A DNA stretch of 64,000 bases, taken from contig JBMFIF010000001.1 of NCBI GenBank assembly GCA_049976445.1, forward strand, positions 24,634 through 88,633, given 5' to 3'. The notes under the pieces are model-generated. The model was not told where the DNA came from. It did no database searches and saw only the letters and a list, made by a program, of their open reading frames with translations. The position numbers and the translations under genes are program-made. Shown in pieces: positions 3,827 through 64,000 of this stretch. Origin of the DNA: Thermoprotei archaeon. Its GTDB lineage: Archaea; Thermoproteota; Thermoprotei; Gearchaeales; WAQG01. Within the stretch, counting starts at the first letter, position 1. Each line of letters starts with the position of its first letter.

Positions 3827-3845
3827 TTCTTCTATATTATTAAGG

Positions 3846-3938
3846 GGGCCGTAGTCTAGTTTGGTCTAGGAAGTTTAAAAAACCTAGAGTACCAGGCTCG
3901 GGCCCTGGAGATCGCCGGTTCAAATCCGGCCGGCCCCA
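3846..3938 (+). tRNA. tRNA-Pro (anticodon CGG) with an ~18-nt non-canonical intron in the D-stem 3' strand
   Basis: Acceptor is GGGGCCG/CGGCCCC plus discriminator A, followed by U8. D-arm is GUCU-AGUUUGGUCUA-GGAU once the intron AGUUUAAAAAACCUAGAG is removed. Anticodon arm is CCAGG-CUCGGGC-CCUGG (CGG). Variable loop is AGAUC and the T-arm is GCCGG-UUCAAAU-CCGGC. The intron forms a CUAGG...CCUAG hairpin across the junction. No CCA is encoded. Confidence 0.75.
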
Positions 3939-4031
3939 CTATATTAATGGTCGTCAGCAGCTCAATTAATCTAATTAAGAACAGGTTTCTCTAAGTAGTA
4001 GGACTTATATATTTTTTAAACGATAAATAAC

Positions 4032-16578: not shown

Positions 16579-17286
16579 TTAAATACCCAAGTAGCTTTCT
16601 TTTACTTTCGGATTAATTAAAAGTTCTTTTCCGCTTCCACTTAGAGCTATTCTTCCATTCTCAATTATATATGCTTTATCAGCTATTTTTAAAGCATTCT
16701 CAACGTGTTGTTCAACAAGTATTATAGTAATACCATACTCTTTGTTTAATTTTTGAATTAGATCAACAATCTGAAGCACAATTTTTGGTGCCAATCCAGC
16801 TGATGGTTCATCTAACATTAATAATTTAGGTCTCCCCATTAGTCCTCTAGCTATTGCAAGCATTTGCTGTTCTCCACCACTTAATGTACCGGCAAGTTGT
16901 TTTTCCCTTTCTTTTAAAATTGGAAATAGTTCATATACTATACTTAACGTTTCGTTTATATGTTTTCTTGCTTCTTTAGTATAAGCGCCCATTAAAAGGT
17001 TCTCATAAACACTCATCTCTGGAAATAACCTTCTTCCCTCAGGCACTAATATTAATCCTAATTTCACTCTATCATGAGGAGGCAAGTATGTTATGTCTGT
17101 TTGTTCGTAAATTATTTTACCCTTTTTTAATTTATGTAAACCAGAAATGCATCTTATTAGGGTAGTTTTTCCAGCTCCGTTTGAACCTAATATAGCAGTA
17201 ATCGTTCCTTTTTCAACAGTTAGGTTTATCCCCCAAAGTACTGTTACTTCACCATAACCTGCCTCAAGATTCTCTACTGAGAGCAT
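16579..17286 (-). CDS. livF: Branched-chain amino acid ABC transporter ATP-binding protein (LivF type)
   Basis: Walker A GSNGAGKTT, ABC signature LSGGEQQ and Walker B LLMLDEP are all present. Confidence 0.85.
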   Translation of the reverse strand: MLSVENLEAGYGEVTVLWGINLTVEKGTITAILGSNGAGKTTLIRCISGLHKLKKGKIIYEQTDITYLPPHDRVKLGLILVPEGRRLFPEMSVYENLLMGAYTKEARKHINETLSIVYELFPILKEREKQLAGTLSGGEQQMLAIARGLMGRPKLLMLDEPSAGLAPKIVLQIVDLIQKLNKEYGITIILVEQHVENALKIADKAYIIENGRIALSGSGKELLINPKVKESYLGI

Positions 17287-18035
17287 TAAGTCTCACCTCG
17301 TGTGTTAATTGAACGCCCTAAATATGCTTCTATTACTTTAAGATCATTAGCGACTTCATTTGGTGTTCCTTCAGCAATTTTTATTCCATTACTAAACACT
17401 ATAATCCTTTCAGAAATTTTCATGATAGCTCTCATTATATGCTCAACGATTATAATAGTTAATCCTAATTCTTTTCTAATTCTTTTTATCATTTCAAGTG
17501 CACTATCAATTTCGGCTGGTGTAAGTCCGGCAAGTGTTTCGTCTAAAAGAAGGAGTTCAGGTTCTGAAGCTAAAGCTCTAGCTATTTCAAGCCTTCTTTT
17601 TTCTGGCATGTTAAGTAAACCAGCAGGTAAGTCTGCTTTATTAATTAAGCCTGTTACCTCTAAAACCTTCTCAACAGTTTTTGCTGCATCATAGGGAGTC
17701 TTAGCGTTGTATTTACCAAAAAGAGCACCAATCATAACATTATCCTTAACAGTCATGGTTGAAAACGGTTTAACTATTTGAAAGGTTCTTCCAATACCCA
17801 TTCTAGCTATTTTATGTGGAGGTAACCCTGTAATATCTACATTCTTAAATATTATTTTTCCTTCATCTGGCTTATAAATACCACTAATTACATTAAAGAA
17901 TGTTGTTTTTCCAGAACCATTAGGCCCAATAAGGCCTAATATTTCATTTTGGTTCACTTCAACGTTTATATTATTTAATGCTATAAGGCCCCCAAATTTT
18001 TTTACTATGCCTTTTGCCTCAAGAATAATGCTCAT
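17286..18035 (-). CDS. livG: Branched-chain amino acid ABC transporter ATP-binding protein (LivG type)
   Basis: Walker A GPNGSGKTT and Walker B LLLLDE are present, and the protein has LivG-type length. Confidence 0.85.
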   Translation of the reverse strand: MSIILEAKGIVKKFGGLIALNNINVEVNQNEILGLIGPNGSGKTTFFNVISGIYKPDEGKIIFKNVDITGLPPHKIARMGIGRTFQIVKPFSTMTVKDNVMIGALFGKYNAKTPYDAAKTVEKVLEVTGLINKADLPAGLLNMPEKRRLEIARALASEPELLLLDETLAGLTPAEIDSALEMIKRIRKELGLTIIIVEHIMRAIMKISERIIVFSNGIKIAEGTPNEVANDLKVIEAYLGRSINTRGET

Positions 18036-23404: not shown

Positions 23405-24544
23405 TTATAGTAATAATGCTGCCTGTTTTATAATAGGATCTGTGAACTCGTTTCTTTCATTTATTATCGAGTGCTTTCTTAAATGTTGTAGTATTTCGTA
23501 GAGAACTCTGTTACTTATCGATCTTCCTTCAATATTTTCTAACTTGTTTTTTATTAATCCCCATTCTTTTACGTCCTGTGCTAATAATTTTAATACTGTC
23601 TGATATCTCCTGCTAATACGTTGTTTAATGAAGTTTTCTAGTTCTGTCTTTGCTAATTCTATAGCCTCCTGCTTTATTGTCTTAATACTTTCTATTCCGT
23701 GTAGTCTCATGTAACCATAATATGTAAGCCAACCAATAATACCATCTAATTCTTTTACAACTTCTTCTAACTCTTTTCTTGATATTTTTACATTATTCTC
23801 GTTGAAACCCTTCTCAAGGAAATCTATTGATTCATCATGTGTGAATTTTCTGGTCCTAATCTCAATAAAAGGCCTACCATAGAGTGGTGAACTTGTATTT
23901 TCAAAGAATCTATGTAAAAGACCCATTTCCGAGCCTGTTAAAACAAAAGTAAGGTTTTCGTGATAATCATATGAATGGGCTATGGCATTAATAAGCTCCA
24001 ATTCAATTGTACCTCCTATTCTTTGGAACTCATCAAAAACAATTATAACTCTTGTATTAGCTTCGATTCCGGCTTTATTTATTAACTTAAAAATCTCTGA
24101 TAGTAAAAGTCTATCTTTACCCCAATCAAACGATATACCTACACCTGATATTGAGACACCTTTAAATCCATATATGAGATTTTTTAAAGATTCAATTAAA
24201 CTTTTGAACCTAGATATTGAAGAAATTAGTTCGTTTAATCCTTTAGAAAGCAAAACATACAATTCCTTTCTTGATAAAAATCCTTCCCTGACATCAATGA
24301 AAATGTAAGGTTTTTTGGATTCTTCTAAGCTCGTGAGTACAAGAGAAGTTTTTCCAGTCCTTCGTAATCCGCTAACGACGATTAATTGCGTATCAAAAGA
24401 TTTCAGTAATAGATTCAATTCATTATCAAAGTTGTATAAATCCTTTTTAGATCTTTTAGGTTTAATGTCAAATAACATATTTCCACACCGAAAATAAGTT
24501 TCGTAACGAAACTTTATAAATCTTTCTACAAAAGTCTGTGACAC
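23405..24544 (-). CDS. Archaeal ATPase (Arch_ATPase/PF01637 with C-terminal DUF234 wHTH)
   Basis: Walker A GLRRTGKTS and Walker B IVFDEFQ are present, with the characteristic C-terminal DUF234 domain. Confidence 0.7.
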   Translation of the reverse strand: MSQTFVERFIKFRYETYFRCGNMLFDIKPKRSKKDLYNFDNELNLLLKSFDTQLIVVSGLRRTGKTSLVLTSLEESKKPYIFIDVREGFLSRKELYVLLSKGLNELISSISRFKSLIESLKNLIYGFKGVSISGVGISFDWGKDRLLLSEIFKLINKAGIEANTRVIIVFDEFQRIGGTIELELINAIAHSYDYHENLTFVLTGSEMGLLHRFFENTSSPLYGRPFIEIRTRKFTHDESIDFLEKGFNENNVKISRKELEEVVKELDGIIGWLTYYGYMRLHGIESIKTIKQEAIELAKTELENFIKQRISRRYQTVLKLLAQDVKEWGLIKNKLENIEGRSISNRVLYEILQHLRKHSIINERNEFTDPIIKQAALLL

Positions 24545-29144: not shown

Positions 29145-30200
29145 TTGGTGATATTTATGGTTAGAGTTTCCATAGTTGGCGGTTCGGGATACAATGGAGG
29201 AGAATTATTAAGGATCTTAGCAAATCATTCGAAAGTCGAAGTTACTTATGTGACTTCTAAAGAATATGTTGGGAAACCTATAACTTTCGTACATCCGAAT
29301 TTGAGAGGATTTTATTCTTTAAGGTTTTCAGAGTATAATATAGATAAGCTAACTAATCTATCAGATGTAGTGTTTCTATCTGTACCACATGGCGTCTCAA
29401 TGACTTTAGTTCCGAGTCTTTTAAATGTTGGTTTGCGGGTGATTGATCTTAGTGCTGATTATAGACTTAAAGATCCTGAACTCTATAAGATCTGGTACGG
29501 GATTGAGCATCCACAACCTGATCTCTTAAGTAAGGCCGTTTATGGGCTACCGGAGCTACATTTTGATGAGTTGCAGAATGCTAGTCTGATAGCATCTCCA
29601 GGTTGTAATGCGACCGCTTCTATATTAGCTTTGGCACCTCTTGCAGCTAATGGTTTGGTTTACGGTAATGTCATTGTTGATATAAAGGCTGGTAGTAGTG
29701 AAGGTGGTTCTAAACCTACTGCAGGTAGTCATCATCCAGAGCGTGAGCATGCTATCAGGCCTTACGAAGCAGAGGGACATAGACATGTTGCTGAAATCGA
29801 GCAAGAATTAAATCGAATTTCTAAGAAAATTGGAAAAGTGAGTCTTATTCCTCATGCTGTAAGTAGTGTAAGAGGTGTACTGGCTTCTGCGCATGTTTGG
29901 GTTGAGTCTGTGTTAAGTGATTTAGATTTATTAAAAATTGTTTCAGGATTTTATAAGGACAGGAAGTTTATTCGTATTGTGAGAGGGTTTCCTCAGTATC
30001 CAGATCCAAAGTATGTGATTGGAAGTAACTTTGCTGATATTGGTTTTGCTTTTGAGAAGCGTGTTAATAGGGTTACTATTTTTGCGGCGTTGGATAATCT
30101 AATTAAGGGTGGTGCTGGGCAGGCAGTTCAGGCGTTTAACATATCTATGGGATTTGATGAAGGAGAGGGTCTCATGACACCTCCTTTAAGGCCGGTGTGA
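29145..30200 (+). CDS. lysY: N-acetyl-gamma-glutamyl-phosphate / [LysW]-aminoadipyl-phosphate reductase
   Basis: The N-terminal VSIVGGSGYNGGELLRIL and the catalytic Cys context (SPGCNAT) are present. Confidence 0.85.
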   Translation: MVIFMVRVSIVGGSGYNGGELLRILANHSKVEVTYVTSKEYVGKPITFVHPNLRGFYSLRFSEYNIDKLTNLSDVVFLSVPHGVSMTLVPSLLNVGLRVIDLSADYRLKDPELYKIWYGIEHPQPDLLSKAVYGLPELHFDELQNASLIASPGCNATASILALAPLAANGLVYGNVIVDIKAGSSEGGSKPTAGSHHPEREHAIRPYEAEGHRHVAEIEQELNRISKKIGKVSLIPHAVSSVRGVLASAHVWVESVLSDLDLLKIVSGFYKDRKFIRIVRGFPQYPDPKYVIGSNFADIGFAFEKRVNRVTIFAALDNLIKGGAGQAVQAFNISMGFDEGEGLMTPPLRPV

Positions 30201-30203
30201 ATT

Positions 30204-30995
30204 ATGGTTATCGTTGTGAAAGCTGGTGGTAGGGTTATAAAAAATAATCTGAACAAATTGATCAAGAGTATTGCATCTTATCAGGAAAAATTAATTTTTG
30301 TTCATGGTGGTGGTGACCAAGTGACCGAGTATAGTAAAAGGATGGGTATAGAACCTAAATTTATTACGTCACCTGAGGGTGTTATGAGCCGTTATACCTC
30401 CCGAGAGGAGTTGGATATTTATGTTATGGTGATGAGTTTAATAAATAAAACAATCACATCAATGTTAATAAGTTTTGGTAAAAAGGTTATAGGTATTACT
30501 GGTATCGATGGTGCTATTTTTACTGCAATTCGAAAGAAAAAGGTTATGATTGTGGATGAGCGTGGACGTAAGCGAATCATCGATGGTGGTTATACTGGAA
30601 AAATTAACGATGTAAATTTTAGTTTGATTAATGCTTTACTTGGTCTTGTTGATATTGTTGTGATCTCCCCAGTAGCTATTGATGTTTCTGAGGGTGTTCC
30701 TCTTAATGTTGACGGTGATCAAGTAGCAAAAGCTATAGCTATAAGCGGTAAAGTTGAGAGATTGATTTTTCTTACTGATGTTGATGGTGTGATTTTCGAT
30801 AATAGATTAGTAAAGCATCTTTCTGTTAACGAAGCGATAGAAATAGTCTCCAAAATTGGCCCTGGCATGAATAGAAAGCTTCTTATGGGGTCTGAGGCTA
30901 TTAATGCTGGAGTGCATAAGGTGATAATATCCTCTGGTTTGGTGGATGATCCTATAGGTAATGCATTAAATGATGGAGGGACCGTTATTGAATAA
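30204..30995 (+). CDS. lysZ: Acetylglutamate kinase-family [LysW]-aminoadipate/glutamate kinase
   Basis: Amino-acid kinase fold (VVKAGG...FVHGGG). Confidence 0.85.
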   Translation: MVIVVKAGGRVIKNNLNKLIKSIASYQEKLIFVHGGGDQVTEYSKRMGIEPKFITSPEGVMSRYTSREELDIYVMVMSLINKTITSMLISFGKKVIGITGIDGAIFTAIRKKKVMIVDERGRKRIIDGGYTGKINDVNFSLINALLGLVDIVVISPVAIDVSEGVPLNVDGDQVAKAIAISGKVERLIFLTDVDGVIFDNRLVKHLSVNEAIEIVSKIGPGMNRKLLMGSEAINAGVHKVIISSGLVDDPIGNALNDGGTVIE

Positions 30996-31410
30996 GATTG
31001 ATGAGAAGGATTTGAAAATACTTAGTATTTTAAGAAAAAATGTGAGGACTCCATATACCGTAATCGCAAGAGAGCTTAATGTGAGTGAGGCTGCTGTGAG
31101 AAAAAGAGTGGAAAAATTAATACGAATGGGTGTAATAAAAAGGTTTACGATTGATTATGAATTAAAGAATGAAGTGAGGGCAATTGTAATGGTTAAGACA
31201 ATGCCTCCAATAAGTACACCAGAGGTTTCTAAGAAAATCATTGCTATTGATGGAGTAGAGGCAGTTTATGAGACTACTGGAGATTATGATATACTGGCTA
31301 TAATAAGGGGAAATAATATTGCAATGATTAATAAAAGTATCGATGCAATAAGAAGTATTGAGGGGGTTTCTGGTACGAACAGTATGATTGTTTTAAGAAC
31401 GTGGTTATAA
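30970..31410 (+). CDS. lysM: Lrp/AsnC-family transcriptional regulator (lysine-cluster regulator LysM-like)
   Basis: The Lrp/AsnC HTH (LKILSILRKNVRTPYTVIARELNVSEAAVRKRVEKL) is followed by a RAM domain. Its position inside the lys cluster supports the call. Confidence 0.75.
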   Translation: MMEGPLLNKIDEKDLKILSILRKNVRTPYTVIARELNVSEAAVRKRVEKLIRMGVIKRFTIDYELKNEVRAIVMVKTMPPISTPEVSKKIIAIDGVEAVYETTGDYDILAIIRGNNIAMINKSIDAIRSIEGVSGTNSMIVLRTWL

Positions 31411-31509
31411 CATTAACATGCAGTATTGTTTCTATTTCGAACGATTTTCAATAAAAATGCTTTTATTCATCGTACTGAGATGTGTAAAGTCTGGAGGTGA
31501 TAATGGGCA

Positions 31510-31674
31510 ATGATCGCTCGATGTCCATTATGTGGAGGAAATGTAAAAGTTCCAGATGATGCGTTGCCTGGAGAAATCGTAGAGCACAGCTGTGGTGCGA
31601 CTTTAGAGGTACATGTAAATGATGGTAGTATAATACTGAAGTTGGCAGAGATTGGAGAGGATTGGGGAGAGTGA
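31510..31674 (+). CDS. lysW: Amino-group carrier protein LysW (54 aa; absent from the ORF track because it is under 60 aa)
   Basis: Translation is [54 protein letters not shown]. It has a Zn-ribbon CPxCG...C and the C-terminal EDWGE tail used for substrate attachment. An SD-like GGAGGTGA lies 5 nt upstream of the ATG. Its stop overlaps the lysX GTG start (GTGA). Confidence 0.75.
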
Positions 31675-32519
31675 ATTTAGGAATAGCATACGACTTTCTA
31701 CGATGGGAAGAAAATGATATAATTAATGAGGCAAAGAATCGCCAAATTAGGATCACCCCGATTTATTTAAAAGATTTCTCTATTAATATAAACGATGGAT
31801 TAAATTTGGACATAGATGCTGTAATTCAAAGGGGAGTTAGTCATAGTAGAGCATACACTTCTACTATTCTTTTTGAATCAAAATCATTATTTGTAATTAA
31901 TCCATCTCATGTATTGGAAATATGTGAGAATAAATTATATGTTACTTCAGTATTAGCTAAAAACAATATACCTGTTCCTAGGACTGGGATAGCTTATAAT
32001 AGAGATGAAGCTATAAAATTAGCTCAAAAAATTGGGTATCCAGTTGTTATTAAGCCAATTGATGGTAGTTGGGGCCGAATGGTTGCAAAAGCTGATGATG
32101 AAGATACGTTAAGAAGCCTTTTGGAATATCAGGAATATTCAAACACATCGTTTAAAAGTATCTTTTATATTCAAGAATATGTAAGAAAACCTAATAGGGA
32201 TATAAGGATTTTTGTAATAGGTGATGAGGTTCCCGTGGGTATATATAGAATTAATGAAAAAAATTGGAGGACGAATACAGCATTGGGCGCAAGAGCGGAA
32301 CCATTAAAGATCGATGATAAGTTAATTGATTTATCTTTAAAAGTTAAAGAAAGTATAGGAGGTTTATTTTTAGGTATTGATATTTTTGAGGATCCATTAC
32401 GAGGATATTTAGTTGATGAGGTTAATGGAATTCCTGAATATAAGAATACTGTACGTGTTACCGGTTTTAACGTTTCTGGTAAATTGTTAGAAAAAATAGC
32501 AGAGGTTGTTAAACGTTGA
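31671..32519 (+). CDS. lysX: RimK-family ATP-grasp ligase LysX (ligates alpha-aminoadipate to LysW)
   Basis: The RimK/ATP-grasp fold begins (V)[15 protein letters not shown] probable GTG start sits at the GTGA overlap with lysW; the ORF track's 31662 start is in the same frame. Confidence 0.8.
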
Positions 32520-33673
32520 AATTGGTTAGTTTTTTTGGTAATAGAGGACTCAAAATTGTTAAAGGTGAGGACCAATACGTATGGGATGAAAATGGTGTCA
32601 AATATCTTGACCTACATACTGGACATGGTGTAGCTTTCCTTGGTCACAGGAATAAAATTGTTGTTGAATATTTAAACAGACAAATGAATGAGATAATGAC
32701 TTTAACTACGGCTTTCTCATCATCAATACGTGACGAAATGTTAAGCGAGCTTGAATACGTGAAACCTGACGGACTTGATAACGTTTTTCTTTTGAACAGC
32801 GGTAGTGAAGCTGTAGAATTGGCAGTAAAAATTGCTAAAAAGATTACAAAAAGAAAGAAGTTTGTCGCTTTTAAAAATTCTTTTCATGGCAGGACTTTTG
32901 CAGCCTTATCTCTCACATGGAATAAAAAATATAGAGAACCTTTTGAACCTCTTATGGATGATGTTATATTTGCTGAATTCAACAACATTGAATCATTAAA
33001 AGTTGTAGATGATACAATTGCAGGAATAATAGTTGAGCCAGTTCAAGGTGAAGGAGGTGTTATACCTGCTCAGCTAGATTTTATGAAAGCCTTAAGGGAT
33101 ATTGCTGATAATACTGGTAGTATTCTTATAGTAGATGAAGTTCAAAGTGGATTTGGAAGAACTGGAAAAATATGGGCATATCAACATTTTAACATAAAAC
33201 CAGATATAATGACTGCCGGTAAAGCTATAGGTGGAGGTTTTCCAGTAAGTGCAGTATTCATGCCAGACTGGATTGCCAGTAAGCTGGATGAAGGTGATCA
33301 TGGTAGTACGTATGGTGGAAATCCACTTGCTATGGCTGCTGTTACTGCATCAGTAAAAGTTTTAAAAAATGATAATGTGATTAATAATGTTAGCGAGAAG
33401 GGGAAAAATTTTATTGACCTACTTAAGGTTAATTTAAAAGATTTTGATATTGTACGTAATATTAGAGGTCTTGGATTTATGATAGGAATTGATATGCGTA
33501 TAAATCCATCAAGTATCATAAAAGCACTTCAAGAAGAGAGGATTTTATCACTTAAGGCTGGAGTAACTACTATTAGATTTTTACCACCATACATGATAAC
33601 ATATGATGATATGAGGAATACTGTTGATACGTTAAGAAAAATATTTCAAAAAATTGAAATGAAAGCTGCATGA
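32516..33673 (+). CDS. lysJ: Class-III aminotransferase (acetylornithine/[LysW]-aminoadipate-semialdehyde aminotransferase)
   Basis: PLP-lysine context ([11 protein letters not shown]) and the class III fold are present. Confidence 0.85.
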
Positions 33674-35179: not shown

Positions 35180-35257
35180 TGAATATCATAGTATTATAGT
35201 TTTACTACATATTTAACTTATTGTATATTAGTTATAACAGCATTTCGTTAAAATATT

Positions 35258-36160
35258 TTAACCTATACTTTTTATGATTTCTTCCTCATTCTCCCTCTGT
35301 TTCTCATGCATTATTCTTCCTGGCCGTACTTTTATCATACCTAATCCTATTTCCCTTCCTTTTCCAACACCAATAAACTCTGCATATGCTAAGAGTCTTG
35401 CTATAATATTCCTTGTTTCAAGATTAAGTTTTTCATCAACTTTATATACGCACCAACCTATAAACCCTCGTATTACATGTTTGTGATCGTTGTTTCGTAC
35501 TATAATTGTTACTGGGTTTAAATAATATCCAGCTTCATGTATGTAGCTGTATGATATTTTGTTTATATTTTTTATGTCAATTTTCATGTCATTTGGTACA
35601 TGTTTATTCCAATGTAATGCAATATTTGATATTAAAGTATGAGGAAGGGGAAAAAGCCTTAACCATGATTTTGTGGTAGGCATTGGTATTTTAATTATAA
35701 ACTGTGTTGGTGTCATGAAATCTATTCTGAAATCGCCTGTAAGGTTTATCAATAACTCATTGATATTAATACTTTTAACTTGTGATGCTACTAAAAGTAT
35801 ACTAGTATTATAGAGTGAAACACGCCAACCGCTCGATATATTTTTCATAAAAAAATCTTGTAACTCATTAACAGGATTTTTGGATAAAAATGATACATAA
35901 AAGACGTATTTTTTTCCTGCATATAACAAAACTGGCGATGATTTTTTCCCTGCATTTCGAAATTTATATATAGGCTTATTATTGCTCATAACAGGTGATA
36001 CTGTTAAATTGCTTAATGCATTGCTAGCAATGATATTCGAAACTATGGTCTCATGATTCTGTATATTCTTAAGTATGAGTTTTGATATTATCGACGTGAA
36101 ACTATCTACAGTAATAGTGGATTCAGGTATAAATTCTAATGTTATACGTGTCATATACAT
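35258..36160 (-). CDS. cas6: Cas6-family endoribonuclease homolog (orphan, no CRISPR array or other cas genes in the window)
   Basis: The C-terminal glycine-rich loop GVGKGREIGLG matches the Cas6 GhGxxxxxGhG signature exactly. Upstream motifs RIDFMTPTQF and RLFPLPH resemble Cas6 beta-strand motifs. At 300 aa it has Cas6 size. Confidence 0.55.
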   Translation of the reverse strand: MYMTRITLEFIPESTITVDSFTSIISKLILKNIQNHETIVSNIIASNALSNLTVSPVMSNNKPIYKFRNAGKKSSPVLLYAGKKYVFYVSFLSKNPVNELQDFFMKNISSGWRVSLYNTSILLVASQVKSININELLINLTGDFRIDFMTPTQFIIKIPMPTTKSWLRLFPLPHTLISNIALHWNKHVPNDMKIDIKNINKISYSYIHEAGYYLNPVTIIVRNNDHKHVIRGFIGWCVYKVDEKLNLETRNIIARLLAYAEFIGVGKGREIGLGMIKVRPGRIMHEKQRENEEEIIKSIG

Positions 36161-36231
36161 TTCATTATCACACCATGTATCGTTAAATAATTATACATAC
36201 AGAAATAAATAGATGCCTATTTTTTTATTTA

Positions 36232-37032
36232 TTGAGAGAAATGGTTTTCAGTAATTTAAATGATCTTATATATAAATCAATACAACGTTTTATGGACGAA
36301 CCTAGTTTAATAGAAACTACTGCTAAATCTGTACTTTTTGTGGGTGATACTCATGGTGCTGTAGACGTTACACAGAAGGTTCTTCGAGAGTATAGAGGTA
36401 TTGTTGATTTAATAGTATTTCTTGGTGATTACGTAGATAGAAGTGATACAGGTCTTGATAACCTTGAACTTATATTAACAGCTAAGTTAAGAGATCCAAA
36501 ACACATAATAGTATTACGTGGTAATCACGAAAGTCCAATCACTAATTATTATTATGGATTCTATGAAGAAGTTTTAGTAAAACTAGGTTCAGGATCGTAT
36601 AATCAATTCGTGGAGTTATTTTCTGTAATGCCATATTCTATAAAGGTAAATGGCATATTAGGATTGCATGGTGGTATTCCTCGCAATGTAGAAAACCTCT
36701 CTGAAATTGCGAAACTACAAAAAGGTGATGAAGAACCAAAAAATCCTATAGCATTTCAGGTTCTCTGGAATGATCCTAGCCCAGATATCAGAGGCTTTGA
36801 ACCCAGCCCGCGAGGCTCGGGTATTTATCTTTTTGGAATGGATATTGCTGAGAAGTTTCTAAAAAAGAATGAATTATATATGCTAGTTAGAGGACACGAA
36901 GTTTGTTTTGAGGGCTATAGAATTGATTTTAACGGATTAGTAATAACAGTCTTTTCGAGTCGATATCATGGTGGATATGCAGGGGCATTGCTAGTAAAAG
37001 ATGATAATGAATTGAGATTTTTAACACTCTAA
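36232..37032 (+). CDS. Calcineurin-like metallophosphoesterase (PPP-family Ser/Thr protein phosphatase-like)
   Basis: GDTHG, GDYVDR and GNHE motifs are present in the canonical order. Confidence 0.7.
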   Translation: MREMVFSNLNDLIYKSIQRFMDEPSLIETTAKSVLFVGDTHGAVDVTQKVLREYRGIVDLIVFLGDYVDRSDTGLDNLELILTAKLRDPKHIIVLRGNHESPITNYYYGFYEEVLVKLGSGSYNQFVELFSVMPYSIKVNGILGLHGGIPRNVENLSEIAKLQKGDEEPKNPIAFQVLWNDPSPDIRGFEPSPRGSGIYLFGMDIAEKFLKKNELYMLVRGHEVCFEGYRIDFNGLVITVFSSRYHGGYAGALLVKDDNELRFLTL

Positions 37033-44104: not shown

Positions 44105-44332
44105 TAATCTCTATCCTTATATGGAAAGAATACATTTTATTTAAATATATTCGAATATTTTGATAATTTTTAGAAACAGGAATAACATTACTGCTGAATA
44201 CAATAAACTAAACAAAATAAATATTGATGAAAATTTTGTTCTAATTATAACGTTTTTTGCAAAAGATTTAACGAATGTATCATAAAAATTATATTTGATT
44301 ATACTTCATATACAAATACGCAGGTGAACAAT

Positions 44333-44512
44333 ATGGCCATAAAAGTAATGTGCCAAGTATGTGGGGGAACAATTACGATACCTGATGATGCAATAGTAGG
44401 AGAGATCGTATCATGCCCAGATTGTGGAATTGATTATGAGGTTTCTCAAATTAATAATGGTAGTATTCAATTAAAAATAGCAGAAGATATAGGAGAGGAT
44501 TGGGGAGAATAA
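44333..44512 (+). CDS. Second LysW-like amino-group carrier protein (ArgW-like), upstream of argX
   Basis: Translation is MAIKVMCQVCGGTITIPDDAIVGEIVSCPDCGIDYEVSQINNGSIQLKIAEDIGEDWGE. It has the same Zn-ribbon plus EDWGE architecture as lysW at 31510. An SD-like AGGTGA lies before the ATG; the ORF track starts it 9 nt earlier at a GTG. Confidence 0.7.
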   Translation: MAIKVMCQVCGGTITIPDDAIVGEIVSCPDCGIDYEVSQINNGSIQLKIAEDIGEDWGE

Positions 44513-44527
44513 GGAGCGATCTACGGG

Positions 44528-45385
44528 TTGGTGAATTTAATAATACTGTATGACAGAATCAGATGGGAAGAAAAACAAATAGCAGAAGAAGCCAAAGCTT
44601 TAGGCGCCACAGTAACTATGATAGACGTTAGATCACTACCATTAGAAATCACATCTAATTCCATTAAAAAGGAATTTGATGGTGTTGTCTTACAAAGATG
44701 CGTAAGTCATACACGCGGAATTTATTATACTGCAATACTTGAAGAACACAATGTTAATGTTATCAATAGTTTTTTTACTACAATGATTACAAGTAATAAA
44801 CTTCTTACAACATTAAAGTTAGTTAAAAATAACATACCTACACCTAAAACTGGTGTAGCTTTTTCATACGATGCAGCTTTAAAAATTGCGAAAGATATAG
44901 GATATCCTGTTGTTATAAAACCGATTTTAGGCAGTTGGGGAAGATTAGTGAATAAGGCGAGAGATCAAGATGAGCTCTCGTCCCTTCTTGAAGCAAGAGA
45001 ACTGTTTTCTGATCCTTTATATCAAGTTTACTATCTGCAAGAATATGTAAAAAGGCCTCCAAGAGATATAAGAAGCATAGTTGTTGGTGATGAAATTATC
45101 GCAATAACTTATAGATATCAACCTGAAAACGATTGGAGAACAAACGTTGCAAGGGGAGGTATAGTTGATAAAGCATATCTTTCTGATGATGAACATGAAA
45201 TTATTCTTCGTGCAGCTAAGACAGTTGGTGGAGGTATTCTTGGTATTGATGCGATGGAAAGTGATAGAGGCATTTTAATTCATGAGATTAATGGAACAGT
45301 AGAATTCAGAGGGGCTGCATCAGTATGGGGAAATATAATACCTAGATCAATAGCTGAATACGCCATAAAAAGAGCTAAGAACTGA
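44528..45385 (+). CDS. argX: RimK-family ATP-grasp ligase, ArgX-like (glutamate-LysW ligase)
   Basis: MVNLIILYDRIRWEEKQ... is a paralog of lysX. It sits in the carAB-argGH neighbourhood. Confidence 0.7.
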   Translation: MVNLIILYDRIRWEEKQIAEEAKALGATVTMIDVRSLPLEITSNSIKKEFDGVVLQRCVSHTRGIYYTAILEEHNVNVINSFFTTMITSNKLLTTLKLVKNNIPTPKTGVAFSYDAALKIAKDIGYPVVIKPILGSWGRLVNKARDQDELSSLLEARELFSDPLYQVYYLQEYVKRPPRDIRSIVVGDEIIAITYRYQPENDWRTNVARGGIVDKAYLSDDEHEIILRAAKTVGGGILGIDAMESDRGILIHEINGTVEFRGAASVWGNIIPRSIAEYAIKRAKN

Positions 45386-45435
45386 AAAATAATATATGAA
45401 ATACAAATTTTTCTCTTCCTAGGTGTATAAAGGTA

Positions 45436-46548
45436 ATGATTACTCACAAAGAGTTGCTTGTTAATATGATAAAAATCTATTCGCCAAGTAATAAAGAGGA
45501 TAATATTAGATCATACATAAACAAATTGCTCAATGAAGAGTTTAAGGCTGATAAAACGTATATCGACAATGCCGGAAATATAATTGGAATCTATGATGGT
45601 ATAGAACCTACAATTTTGCTCTCAAGCCACATGGATACAGTACCTGGTGAGATTAATGTAAAAGTTGATAGGGAAAAAATTTACGGAAGAGGAGCATCAG
45701 ATGCAAAAGGACCCTTAGCAACATTCCTCTATTCATCATACTTATTAAAAAGGGTAGAAAACTATCCGTCAAAAATAATAGTAGTTGGTACAGTTGATGA
45801 AGAAGGAGAAAGTAGGGGAATAAAGGAATTGCCTAATACCCTACAAAAATTAGACATCAGACCCTCATATGCAATTTTTGGTGAACCAGGGGGTGCTAAT
45901 GTCATAACAATAGGATACAAAGGAAGAATACAATTACGTATAAAACTATTTGCCGAAAGCTATCATGCATCATTACCAAATGCTCCAAATGTTATAGAGA
46001 ACATGATGATAATACTCAATGCTTTAAAAAACTATGAAAAAGAATTTAAAACATCTAATAATTTCACCTCCATAACAATAACACCCACAATTATAACTGG
46101 CGGTCATGCAACAAACGTAACACCACGTGAATGTGAGATAGTATTAGACATACGTATTCCACCAACAAAATCAATAAACGAATTCTTATCAAACATAATT
46201 AACATAGTTAAATCTAATACTAATTTGAGAAATGAATGCATTGTCGAGGATTTTACTGAACCTTACCAATCAAATATTTCAACTCCTTTGGTCACTGCAT
46301 TTCGTGAAGCTATATTGCAAATAACCAACATAGACGCAAGATTCATAAGGAAGAGTGGAACTGGCGAGATGAATATTTTTGCTCAAAAATATGATATTCC
46401 AATTATAACATATGGTCCTGGAGATCCAAAAGTATCTCACACGGATAATGAGCACATTCTCTTATATGATTACGAATTAGCAATTAAAATCGTAAAACAA
46501 GCACTTTGGAAGCTTCAGAAAATACAAGAAAAGAGAAACCTCAAATAA
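45436..46548 (+). CDS. lysK: M20-family [LysW]-lysine/ornithine hydrolase (ArgE/LysK-like)
   Basis: M20 metal-binding motifs are present (SSHMDTVPGE, GASDAKGP, DEEGES). Confidence 0.75.
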   Translation: MITHKELLVNMIKIYSPSNKEDNIRSYINKLLNEEFKADKTYIDNAGNIIGIYDGIEPTILLSSHMDTVPGEINVKVDREKIYGRGASDAKGPLATFLYSSYLLKRVENYPSKIIVVGTVDEEGESRGIKELPNTLQKLDIRPSYAIFGEPGGANVITIGYKGRIQLRIKLFAESYHASLPNAPNVIENMMIILNALKNYEKEFKTSNNFTSITITPTIITGGHATNVTPRECEIVLDIRIPPTKSINEFLSNIINIVKSNTNLRNECIVEDFTEPYQSNISTPLVTAFREAILQITNIDARFIRKSGTGEMNIFAQKYDIPIITYGPGDPKVSHTDNEHILLYDYELAIKIVKQALWKLQKIQEKRNLK

Positions 46549-62663: not shown

Positions 62664-64000
62664 CTATTCTAGTGTAAATTTTGCTATAGCGGTTTTTTCT
62701 TTTATCTTAAAACTGTGTTTTATTCCATTTATTAAAATGTTTTCTATGCCAGATCCATTTAAAATATGTAATTCAATATTTTTGAAAGAGGGTTTATAGT
62801 TTTTGTTTAAAATTTCAGTATCGACTATAATTTCGTTGTTATCTCGAATAATTTCTACTTCGGCTTCGAAATATTCCCCTTTCTGATATTTCAATGTTTC
62901 ACCATCGTCATCATATACTCGTGTCTTTACTTTCTTAGTAATGAATGTTTCGATTTTAATTGGATCCCAGGGTTCGTATGCATTTTCTTTAGGATCAGTT
63001 GTAAGTATTGCTGTATTTTCTCTAATAAAGATTGGTATTATTTCAAGAGAAGCTTTAACTAAATTCCAGCCATGGTTAAGTATTTCTCCGTCCCAGTAAT
63101 CATACCATTTGACTTCTGGTAAATATACAGCTCTAGCTTTAATGCCTGGAGCTAATATTGGTGCTATTAGAAGAGCTTCTCCTAGCATGAACTCATCGTC
63201 TATGTCATAGCAATTTTCATCGGAAGGAAATTCGGTTGAAAGTGTTCTCATTATAGGAAGACCTGTTCTGTGCGCATCTATAAAAAGTCTGTAGATATAA
63301 GGAAGTAGTTTATATCTAAATTTAATAGTGTTTTTAATTATTGTCTCGAATGGTTCTCCAAAAACCCATGGTTCATGCCTTCTAGCATTAATATCACTAT
63401 GATTTCGGTAAAAAGGATAAAACGCTCCTAATTGGTGCCATCTGACCAAAAGTTCTGGATCAGTATCATCGCTAAACCCTCCAACATCAGCTCCCACAAA
63501 AGGTATACCTGAAAGACCTAAGCTAAGAAGTTGAGGAATGCTAATTTCCATATGTCCCCAATCTGCTTGATTATCTCCTGTCCAGACTGCTGCAAATTTT
63601 TGAATCCCTGCAAATCCTGATCTAGAAAGTATGAACGTCCTTTTATCTTCATATACTTTTTTGAATCCTTCATATGTGGCCAAATTTTCTAGAAGCGAGT
63701 ATGCATTATGTATCTCATCGTGATGGATCATATTTCCTTCATCATCTTTATGTATAGCATTTATTTTTATGTATCCAACGTTTTTATTAACCATAGCTGT
63801 TGATATTTTTGAAATTTCTGAAATAATGTTTAAACCTACATTTCCATTACCGCTAATGATACTTGGTAATTGTTCGATAATATCTTTTAATGGGTCTATC
63901 ATTAGAAATATTGAAGGCTCATTCATATCAAGCCAAATTCCATCAATACCTTGTTTAATCCATCTAGCTATGTATGACGACCATAACTTTCTTACTTCTG
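62664..64000 (-). CDS. malA: Alpha-glucosidase, glycoside hydrolase family 31 (MalA-like); N-terminal part lies beyond the window
   Basis: GH31 motifs are present: GIWLDMNEPS (nucleophile Asp, continuing upstream of the listed Met) and AVWTGDNQADWGHM. The reading frame stays open to the window edge. Confidence 0.8.
   Translation of the reverse strand, partial: EVRKLWSSYIARWIKQGIDGIWLDMNEPSIFLMIDPLKDIIEQLPSIISGNGNVGLNIISEISKISTAMVNKNVGYIKINAIHKDDEGNMIHHDEIHNAYSLLENLATYEGFKKVYEDKRTFILSRSGFAGIQKFAAVWTGDNQADWGHMEISIPQLLSLGLSGIPFVGADVGGFSDDTDPELLVRWHQLGAFYPFYRNHSDINARRHEPWVFGEPFETIIKNTIKFRYKLLPYIYRLFIDAHRTGLPIMRTLSTEFPSDENCYDIDDEFMLGEALLIAPILAPGIKARAVYLPEVKWYDYWDGEILNHGWNLVKASLEIIPIFIRENTAILTTDPKENAYEPWDPIKIETFITKKVKTRVYDDDGETLKYQKGEYFEAEVEIIRDNNEIIVDTEILNKNYKPSFKNIELHILNGSGIENILINGIKHSFKIKEKTAIAKFTLE

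Follow-up and report, generated by a model that had tools for sequence, protein, structure and literature searches.

The DNA analysed here, hereafter referred to as the window, is a stretch of 64,000 nucleotides with a G+C content of about 33%, taken from contig JBMFIF010000001.1 (positions 24,634 to 88,633, forward strand) of the Thermoprotei archaeon assembly GCA_049976445.1 (Gearchaeales; WAQG01). It carries a solitary cas6 gene flanked on one side by the gene for gamma-glutamyltranspeptidase (GGT) and on the other by a divergently oriented phosphatase gene, beyond which lies a gene for an NTP-transferase/phosphomutase fusion. The encoded protein is a divergent Cas6, and public annotation already labels it as Cas6. 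What is new is that it belongs to a narrow, divergent Cas6 clade, known from five lineages, whose genomic setting is unusual and whose catalytic site has been remodelled in part. The gene and the features of its product, in positions of the window, are as follows.

35258..36160, minus strand: solitary cas6 gene, 300 amino acids (profile matches, AlphaFold2 model, Foldseek, and the ratio of nonsynonymous to synonymous substitution rates, dN/dS)
35801..36145, minus strand: N-terminal RNA recognition motif (RRM) domain, Cas6_N, residues 6-120 (Pfam PF17952; residues mapped through PDB profile and family alignments)
35333..35725, minus strand: C-terminal Cas6 domain, residues 146-276 (Pfam PF10040)
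35339..35371, minus strand: glycine-rich loop GVGKGREIGLG, residues 264-274, including R269 at 35354-35356 (alignment to the loop of the Sulfolobus solfataricus Cas6, SsoCas6)
35261..35320, minus strand: conserved, clade-specific acidic C-terminal tail, residues 281-300 (clade alignment)

The start codon (M1) lies at 36158-36160 and the same start is found in all five lineages. The 300-residue protein scored above the cut-offs of Pfam CRISPR_Cas6 (PF10040; 53.9 bits, gathering cut-off 25), Pfam Cas6_N (PF17952; 29.3 bits, cut-off 27) and NCBIfam TIGR01877 (64.6 bits, curated cut-off 58.65), and it was matched by sixteen Cas6 models of PADLOC, the top one being Cas6a (E 2.6e-25). When a profile of the clade and its nearest relatives was searched against the PDB, the S. 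solfataricus Cas6 structures 3zfv (E 3e-31) and 4ill (E 1e-29) were recovered. A structural model was predicted with AlphaFold2 from an alignment of 133 sequences (predicted local distance difference test, pLDDT, 93.1; predicted template modelling score, pTM, 0.89), the five-sequence clade alignment alone having given an unusable model with a pLDDT of 40. Foldseek searches of the PDB with the accepted model placed 4ill and 3zfv on top (E of about 1e-17, TM score 0.69-0.79), and ranks 1-33 and 35-36 were Cas6 entries throughout. Both the model and the fold match show two tandem RRM/ferredoxin-like domains, i.e. the RAMP fold. Judged from these profiles and from the predicted structure, the open reading frame (ORF) at 35258-36160 is a genuine Cas6.

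The family motifs are found in the C-terminal Cas6 domain, including F-x-TP (residues 148-151), HWN (183-185) and RGFxGW. The stretch GVGKGREIGLG aligned with the family loop and follows its GhGxxxxxGhG pattern, with G266 and G274 invariant and G272 nearly so among the 133 aligned sequences. All near-invariant positions of the family (F148, P151, P171, W184, G232, G235, G266, G272 and G274) are retained. The acidic tail that follows is invariant in the clade at E286, E290, E293, E294, I296, K297, I299 and G300, and its residues 289-298 are predicted with low confidence to form a helix. The close canonical relatives have short, unconserved tails after the strand of the glycine-rich loop, with no counterpart to this acidic tail.

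There is no CRISPR array in the window: Tandem Repeats Finder returned nothing beyond trivial repeats with 2-3 copies, interspaced direct repeats (22 nucleotides or longer, within 120 nucleotides of one another) were absent, and Rfam at gathering thresholds gave nothing. Repeat-like sequence was not found there either, as three crenarchaeal CRISPR repeats matched the window no better than they matched shuffled controls. Among the 58 window ORFs of at least 90 amino acids, the cas models of PADLOC match the Cas6 ORF alone. The locus could be followed for 6.6 kb past the right end of the window, where genes for GH31, PIG-L, GH1 and Phe-tRNA synthetase were found and neither cas genes nor repeats. 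Similarly, no cas genes or arrays were present within 10 kb on either side in the L001 and P0004-lineage loci, nor on the shorter contigs of the other lineages. The preliminary description, made from the letters of the window, had called the gene an orphan Cas6 homologue with a Cas6-type glycine-rich loop and without an array or cas operon nearby; the profile matches, the loop alignment and the searches of the window and the adjoining 6.6 kb confirm it on each of these counts.

Some other matches to the PADLOC defence library were discarded. Those to 'Csa3/CARF/CasR' cover only the helix-turn-helix (residues 5-72) of an AsnC-type regulator at 30970-31410, and those to mad3, AriA and PtuA stem from ABC-transporter ATPases at 16582-18035. 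Apart from Cas6, a single defence-library match in the window cannot be put down to a generic domain, namely a weak one to the candidate defence family PDC-S27 (PADLOC, E 1e-8), from a 379-residue archaeal-type ATPase at 23405-24544 on the minus strand.

Characterised crenarchaeal Cas6 enzymes are active without a catalytic histidine (PMC3652601). In the clade, no conserved histidine was found at the position of the catalytic histidine of PfuCas6, Cas6e or Cas6f, H36 being present in the window sequence only; because the active crenarchaeal enzymes are also without one, its absence does not exclude membership of the family. The preliminary description would have abandoned the assignment for want of a profile match, or for a better alignment to another ferredoxin-fold family lacking the catalytic histidine. 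Profile and fold favour Cas6, and the histidine is indeed absent, as is normal for the crenarchaeal subfamily.

In SsoCas6, K28 is the most important single residue, the K28A substitution reducing the rate more than 200-fold, while K51A reduces it 40-fold and K25A, R231A and R269A each reduce it at least 10-fold (PMC3652601). These residues were mapped onto the window protein by means of the PDB profile alignment and an alignment of 137 sequences, and were counted in the family over 131 representatives.

SsoCas6 K25: window I24 (36089-36091); clade I/T; K/R in 71/131 of the family
SsoCas6 K28: window K27 (36080-36082); clade K/K/R/K/K; K/R in 97/131
SsoCas6 K51-P52: window S50-N51 (36008-36013); clade invariant S-N; K/R in 108/131 and P in 102/131
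SsoCas6 R232 (R231/232): window H228 (35477-35479); clade H/H/H/S/R; R/K in 92/131
SsoCas6 R269 (loop): window R269; clade R/K/K/K/K; R/K in 111/131

Two of the five important basic residues, the equivalents of K28 and R269, are kept in the clade. The replacements at the other positions suggest a slower or altered catalytic centre and are no proof of inactivity. The K51 column is without K/R in 23 of the 131 representatives, which include a coherent x-R-A-P-K/R-R subfamily (members P0067, P0071, P0106, P0107, P0123 and P0131), and two or fewer of the five residues are kept in 21 of the 131 other representatives, so that the clade is unusual without being unique.

The nearest relatives of the clade are P0160, P0157 and P0008 from uncultured Thermoproteota/Nitrososphaerota, with the same pair of domains and identities of 29-32%. 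In contrast to the window protein, these end cas operons or adaptation modules and keep K-P at positions 51-52. P0160 follows a Cas10d-like/Csc2/Csc1/Cas3/Csa3 set, resembling a type I-D operon, and about 0.5 kb downstream of it there is a large CRISPR array (L010:11328-15500) with at least 44 copies of the 25-nucleotide repeat GAAGAATCCTAAAAGGAATTGAAAG; beyond this array lie the genes of an apparent second effector module, including a RAMP protein. P0157 is located after csa1-cas1-cas2-cas4, and P0008 closes a type I-A operon. A different setting was found for P0125, a Cas6 homologue on a separate branch and 24% identical to the window protein, which is solitary in two metagenome-assembled genomes (MAGs; L053:10001-10834 and L054:10001-10834). 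Its neighbours are genes for methionyl-tRNA synthetase, a radical-SAM protein, an AdoMet-decarboxylase, a peptidase M18 and LigT, and the 10 kb on each side of it contain neither an array nor any other cas gene. It also has Ser-Asn at the Lys51-Pro52 position.

The clade is known from MAGs and metagenomes only. The exact protein occurs in four NCBI MAGs labelled 'Thermoprotei archaeon', and a word-indexed protein search gave only five full-length relatives, at 68-100% identity. A HMMER search over 1.84 billion cluster representatives returned 172 of them at E ≤0.001, with one cluster for the clade at 610 bits and the next match at 156 bits; the closest sequences outside the clade are 31-32% identical, and no relative exceeds 32%. 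A neighbour-joining tree was built from 137 members of the family; in it the clade forms a monophyletic group with a stem length of 0.66, and P0007 was recovered as its sister in 12 of 40 bootstraps. When a collection of species-representative genomes was scanned with the clade alignment, no orthologue was found, and the C-terminal part of the NTP-transferase/phosphomutase gave only homologues of 20-24% identity there, nearly all of them bacterial. The lineage appears to be absent from this collection.

The gene order NTP-transferase/phosphomutase, phosphatase (divergent) and cas6 was seen in all five lineages, and beyond cas6, where the contig continues, it is followed by GGT and then by the LysW/LysX/LysJ genes. 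In L018 the NTP-transferase gene is preceded by different genes and the NTP-transferase-phosphatase-Cas6 block is intact. Pairwise dN/dS of cas6 among the five lineages is 0.06-0.16 at dS of 0.5-1.5, and that of the phosphatase, NTP-transferase, GGT and LysJ genes is 0.03-0.12; as dS is near saturation, these ratios are approximate. Between lineages the Cas6 proteins are 68-89% identical in amino acids and the neighbouring proteins 74-96%, and both group the lineages in much the same way. Because of the low dN/dS and the neighbour-like divergence, cas6 is regarded as functional and as vertically inherited with its neighbours, under constraint only a little weaker than theirs.

This bears directly on the suggestion that the gene no longer has a function and is decaying, left behind by a CRISPR-Cas system that was lost; both its isolation from other cas genes and the replacements among its catalytic residues could be attributed to such decay. 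Decay is excluded because of the purifying selection recorded above, the full-length ORFs being intact in five lineages at these values of dS and dN/dS; the identical protein in four MAGs and the conservation of both promoter region and start codon also speak against it. We regard a remnant as extremely improbable.

Our preferred reading, to which we give about an even chance of being right, is that the protein is a free-standing, vertically inherited Cas6 of the crenarchaeal type which matures CRISPR RNA (crRNA) in trans. We favour it because family membership is established at curated cut-offs, the structure matches SsoCas6 and the K28 and R269 equivalents are kept together with the near-invariant positions, and because the ORF is intact under purifying selection and relatives of about 30% identity lie in cas operons. 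The CRISPR arrays that it would serve most likely lie elsewhere in the genome, a location made likely by the presence of CRISPR-Cas in most archaea. A promoter of its own, within the 80-bp region that separates it from the phosphatase gene, would drive transcription of cas6 alone. Its product, predicted from the model and the fold match to consist of two RRM domains with the glycine-rich loop, would by homology bind CRISPR repeat RNA and release crRNAs by a metal-independent cut involving Lys27 (the counterpart of SsoCas6 Lys28) and Arg269, and it would act in trans on arrays and effector modules elsewhere in the genome. The gene itself would have left a mobile cas neighbourhood, and it is now inherited vertically with housekeeping genes.

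Several observations weigh against a trans-acting maturase. Neither an array nor repeat-like sequence nor any other cas gene is found in the 64 kb and the adjoining 6.6 kb. The equivalents of K25, K51 and R231/232 are replaced across the clade, the R232 position being R in one lineage. The clade stem ranks among the two longest internal branches in the tree (median 0.09, 95th percentile 0.32, maximum 0.662), and cas6 evolves about as slowly as its housekeeping neighbours. Slow, housekeeping-like evolution is not typical of cas genes.

The main rival to a trans-acting maturase, which could also accommodate these features, is a co-opted Cas6, i.e. one that left the cas locus, had its active site remodelled and now binds or slowly cleaves cellular non-CRISPR RNA, in a role within core RNA metabolism that does not depend on CRISPR immunity. 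The preliminary description had named both possibilities, crRNA processing in trans for a distant array and co-option. We consider co-option possible and, on balance, rather unlikely. It is in agreement with the housekeeping synteny in all five lineages and the neighbour-like dN/dS and divergence, with a stem so far above the median branch, with the replacement of the K25, K51 and R232 equivalents on a retained RNA-binding scaffold and with the conserved acidic tail specific to the clade. The phylogenetically separate P0125, also solitary among housekeeping genes and with S-N at K51-P52, points in the same direction, as does the location in cas operons of all three K51-keeping relatives with readable context; however, this comparison of contexts comprises five cases, too few to conclude from. 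A precedent exists in the action of the S. solfataricus Cas6-3 on ncRNA60 (PMC4041471). On the other hand, no candidate substrate was found and the window holds no repeat-like sequence, the K28 and R269 equivalents are kept, and loss of a basic residue at K51, seen in the 23 representatives mentioned above, need not mean a changed function. From general knowledge, the prior expectation that an archaeon carries CRISPR arrays is also high.

A fuller version of co-option, which we put forward a shade more tentatively, is a domesticated Cas6 that escaped from a cas operon, lost the Lys51, Lys25 and Arg232 equivalents and gained the acidic tail in a burst of change, and became fixed in the core genome, binding a cellular RNA or processing it slowly. 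The shared Ser-Asn of P0125 is a hint that Cas6 proteins which no longer serve CRISPR immunity may be recognisable by their loss of Lys51. Should the protein be domesticated, loss of the Lys51-Pro52 motif would offer a simple sequence marker for finding others.

If the enzyme acts in trans, it would be a clean example of cas6 as a fixed, vertically inherited gene of the core genome, constrained much like a housekeeping gene and uncoupled from the mobile effector and adaptation modules. As solitary cas6 genes are already known, such a case would be useful and not surprising. A domesticated Cas6 with a cellular RNA target, as would follow if the genomes were found to be without CRISPR arrays, would be more noteworthy.

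The remaining features of the locus concern the promoters of cas6 and the phosphatase next to it.

36161..36240, no strand: divergent intergenic region of about 80 bp, with two putative back-to-back promoters
35180..35257, minus strand: spacer between cas6 and the GGT gene, 78-241 bp among the lineages
36241..37032, plus strand: gene for a PPP-family (PP1/PP2A-like) Ser/Thr protein phosphatase, 263 amino acids (Pfam, PDB matches and motifs)

The ORFs of cas6 and the phosphatase are divergent and 71-80 bp apart, depending on the choice of start, the alternative phosphatase start being a TTG at 36232 (266 amino acids). A run of seven T at 36220-36226 is shorter in three sister lineages, where the gene caller adds 9 residues to give a protein of 272 amino acids. 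Since neither the window nor L017 can encode this extension, the conserved ATG at 36241 is likely to be the true start, and the similarity upstream of it would then be at the level of DNA, i.e. of the promoter. A shared bidirectional TATA box was considered and dropped, as it required the start of the 272-residue form, which two of the five lineages are unable to encode. When the divergent region is aligned across the five lineages, 52 columns of a consensus of about 75 nucleotides are invariant; the region contains AT-rich TATA-like elements, and a GGTG motif precedes the cas6 ATG by 12-15 nucleotides. Read most simply, it would place a cas6 promoter back-to-back with the phosphatase promoter. 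In the spacer between cas6 and GGT only the ~45 bp adjoining the GGT start are conserved, which suggests that GGT has a promoter of its own and that cas6 is monocistronic. Promoter-proximal conservation is normal in this lineage.

The neighbour matched Pfam Metallophos at 94 bits and, over residues 6-255, the solved structures of eukaryotic PP1/PP2A catalytic subunits (E 1e-35 to 1e-38). It has the motifs GDTHG, GDYVDR, GNHE, HGG and RGHE, with GDYVDRS where the signature has GDxVDRG. These matches and motifs identify it as a PPP-family Ser/Thr protein phosphatase. The archaeal members of this family, Sso-PP1 and Saci-PP2A, are general pSer/pThr phosphatases, and Saci-PP2A, one of only two protein phosphatases of S. 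acidocaldarius, exerts a global influence on growth, cell shape and motility (PMC5007285). The likeness of the neighbour to this archaeal class consists of the PPP motifs GDxHG, GDxVDR and GNHE and the PP1/PP2A match.

The preliminary description had named the flanking genes as those for GGT and sugar-nucleotide enzymes, with a calcineurin-like phosphoesterase divergent from cas6 at a distance of 70 bp. These identities and the arrangement stand, the phosphoesterase being more precisely a PPP Ser/Thr phosphatase. It had also proposed a functional link between the two genes. In such a pair, the phosphoesterase could heal the 2',3'-cyclic phosphate ends that Cas6 cleavage leaves or regulate Cas6 through dephosphorylation, with both genes under a shared bidirectional promoter, and the divergent arrangement and highly conserved 80-bp region in all five lineages, the persistence of the NTP-transferase-phosphatase-Cas6 block through the upstream rearrangement in L018 and a faint NCBIfam match of the phosphatase to the Pnkp phosphatase family (E 0.023) could be cited for it. 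However, the enzyme is a full-length phosphatase of the PP1/PP2A type, a class that acts generally on Ser/Thr in Sulfolobus (PMC5007285), and the region upstream of GGT is similarly conserved, so that promoter conservation is not special here. The pairing was moreover seen only where the whole region is syntenic. A scan of metagenomes with the phosphatase alignment gave 24 loci, of which two, both of this lineage (100% and 82% identity), had Cas6, NTP-transferase and GGT nearby; at the other 22, with homologues of 32-54% identity, none of the three was found within 6 kb on either side, an imperfect test as some of these loci may be paralogues. A full-text literature search on the Sulfolobus phosphoproteome and PP2A turned up no paper naming Cas6 alongside these. 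The link proposed earlier is not supported, there being no positive evidence for a Cas6-phosphoesterase module beyond local synteny: the pair is confined to one narrow lineage, and Cas6 accompanied only phosphatases of at least 82% identity in the scan. It looks like ordinary local gene order in which the phosphatase is simply a neighbour, and we hold a functional pair to be very unlikely.

Elsewhere in the window there are two LysW/LysX-type amino-group-carrier gene sets, at 29145-33673 and 44200-46548, both of which include a LysW zinc ribbon and a LysX ATP-grasp protein. One of them holds a kinase, a semialdehyde dehydrogenase, an aminotransferase and the AsnC-type regulator, the other an M20 deacylase, and the two sets flank carbamoyl-phosphate synthase genes. 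At 3845-3939 ARAGORN predicts a 95-nucleotide tRNA-Phe with anticodon AAA, where Rfam gave no tRNA at the gathering threshold; the tRNA may contain an intron, or the call may be wrong. The 420-residue ORF at the right edge (62664-63926, minus strand) seems to correspond to the C-terminal portion of a GH31 glycosidase that has 767 amino acids in a sister assembly (L050:5688-7991).

Among the known systems, two Cas6 enzymes of Sulfolobus (Saccharolobus) solfataricus invite comparison. Cas6-3 cuts ncRNA60, a non-CRISPR transcript (PMC4041471). It differs from the present case in being encoded close to cas genes and in that ncRNA60 carries a repeat-like sequence, of which there is none in the window. 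Cas6-1 (SSO1437, 3ZFV; SSO2004, 4ILL) is the best match of the window protein in both sequence and fold. The window protein is only 15-17% identical to it in the Foldseek alignments, has the Lys25, Lys51 and Arg231/232 equivalents replaced, bears the extra acidic C-terminal tail and, unlike Cas6-1, is the product of a vertically inherited gene that lies among housekeeping genes, neither an array nor another cas gene being present within 64 kb. The two have in common the pair of RRMs, the glycine-rich loop, the lack of a catalytic histidine and the equivalents of Lys28 and Arg269. A further likeness is that Cas6-1 is a free enzyme and not a stably bound subunit of Cascade (PMC4041471).

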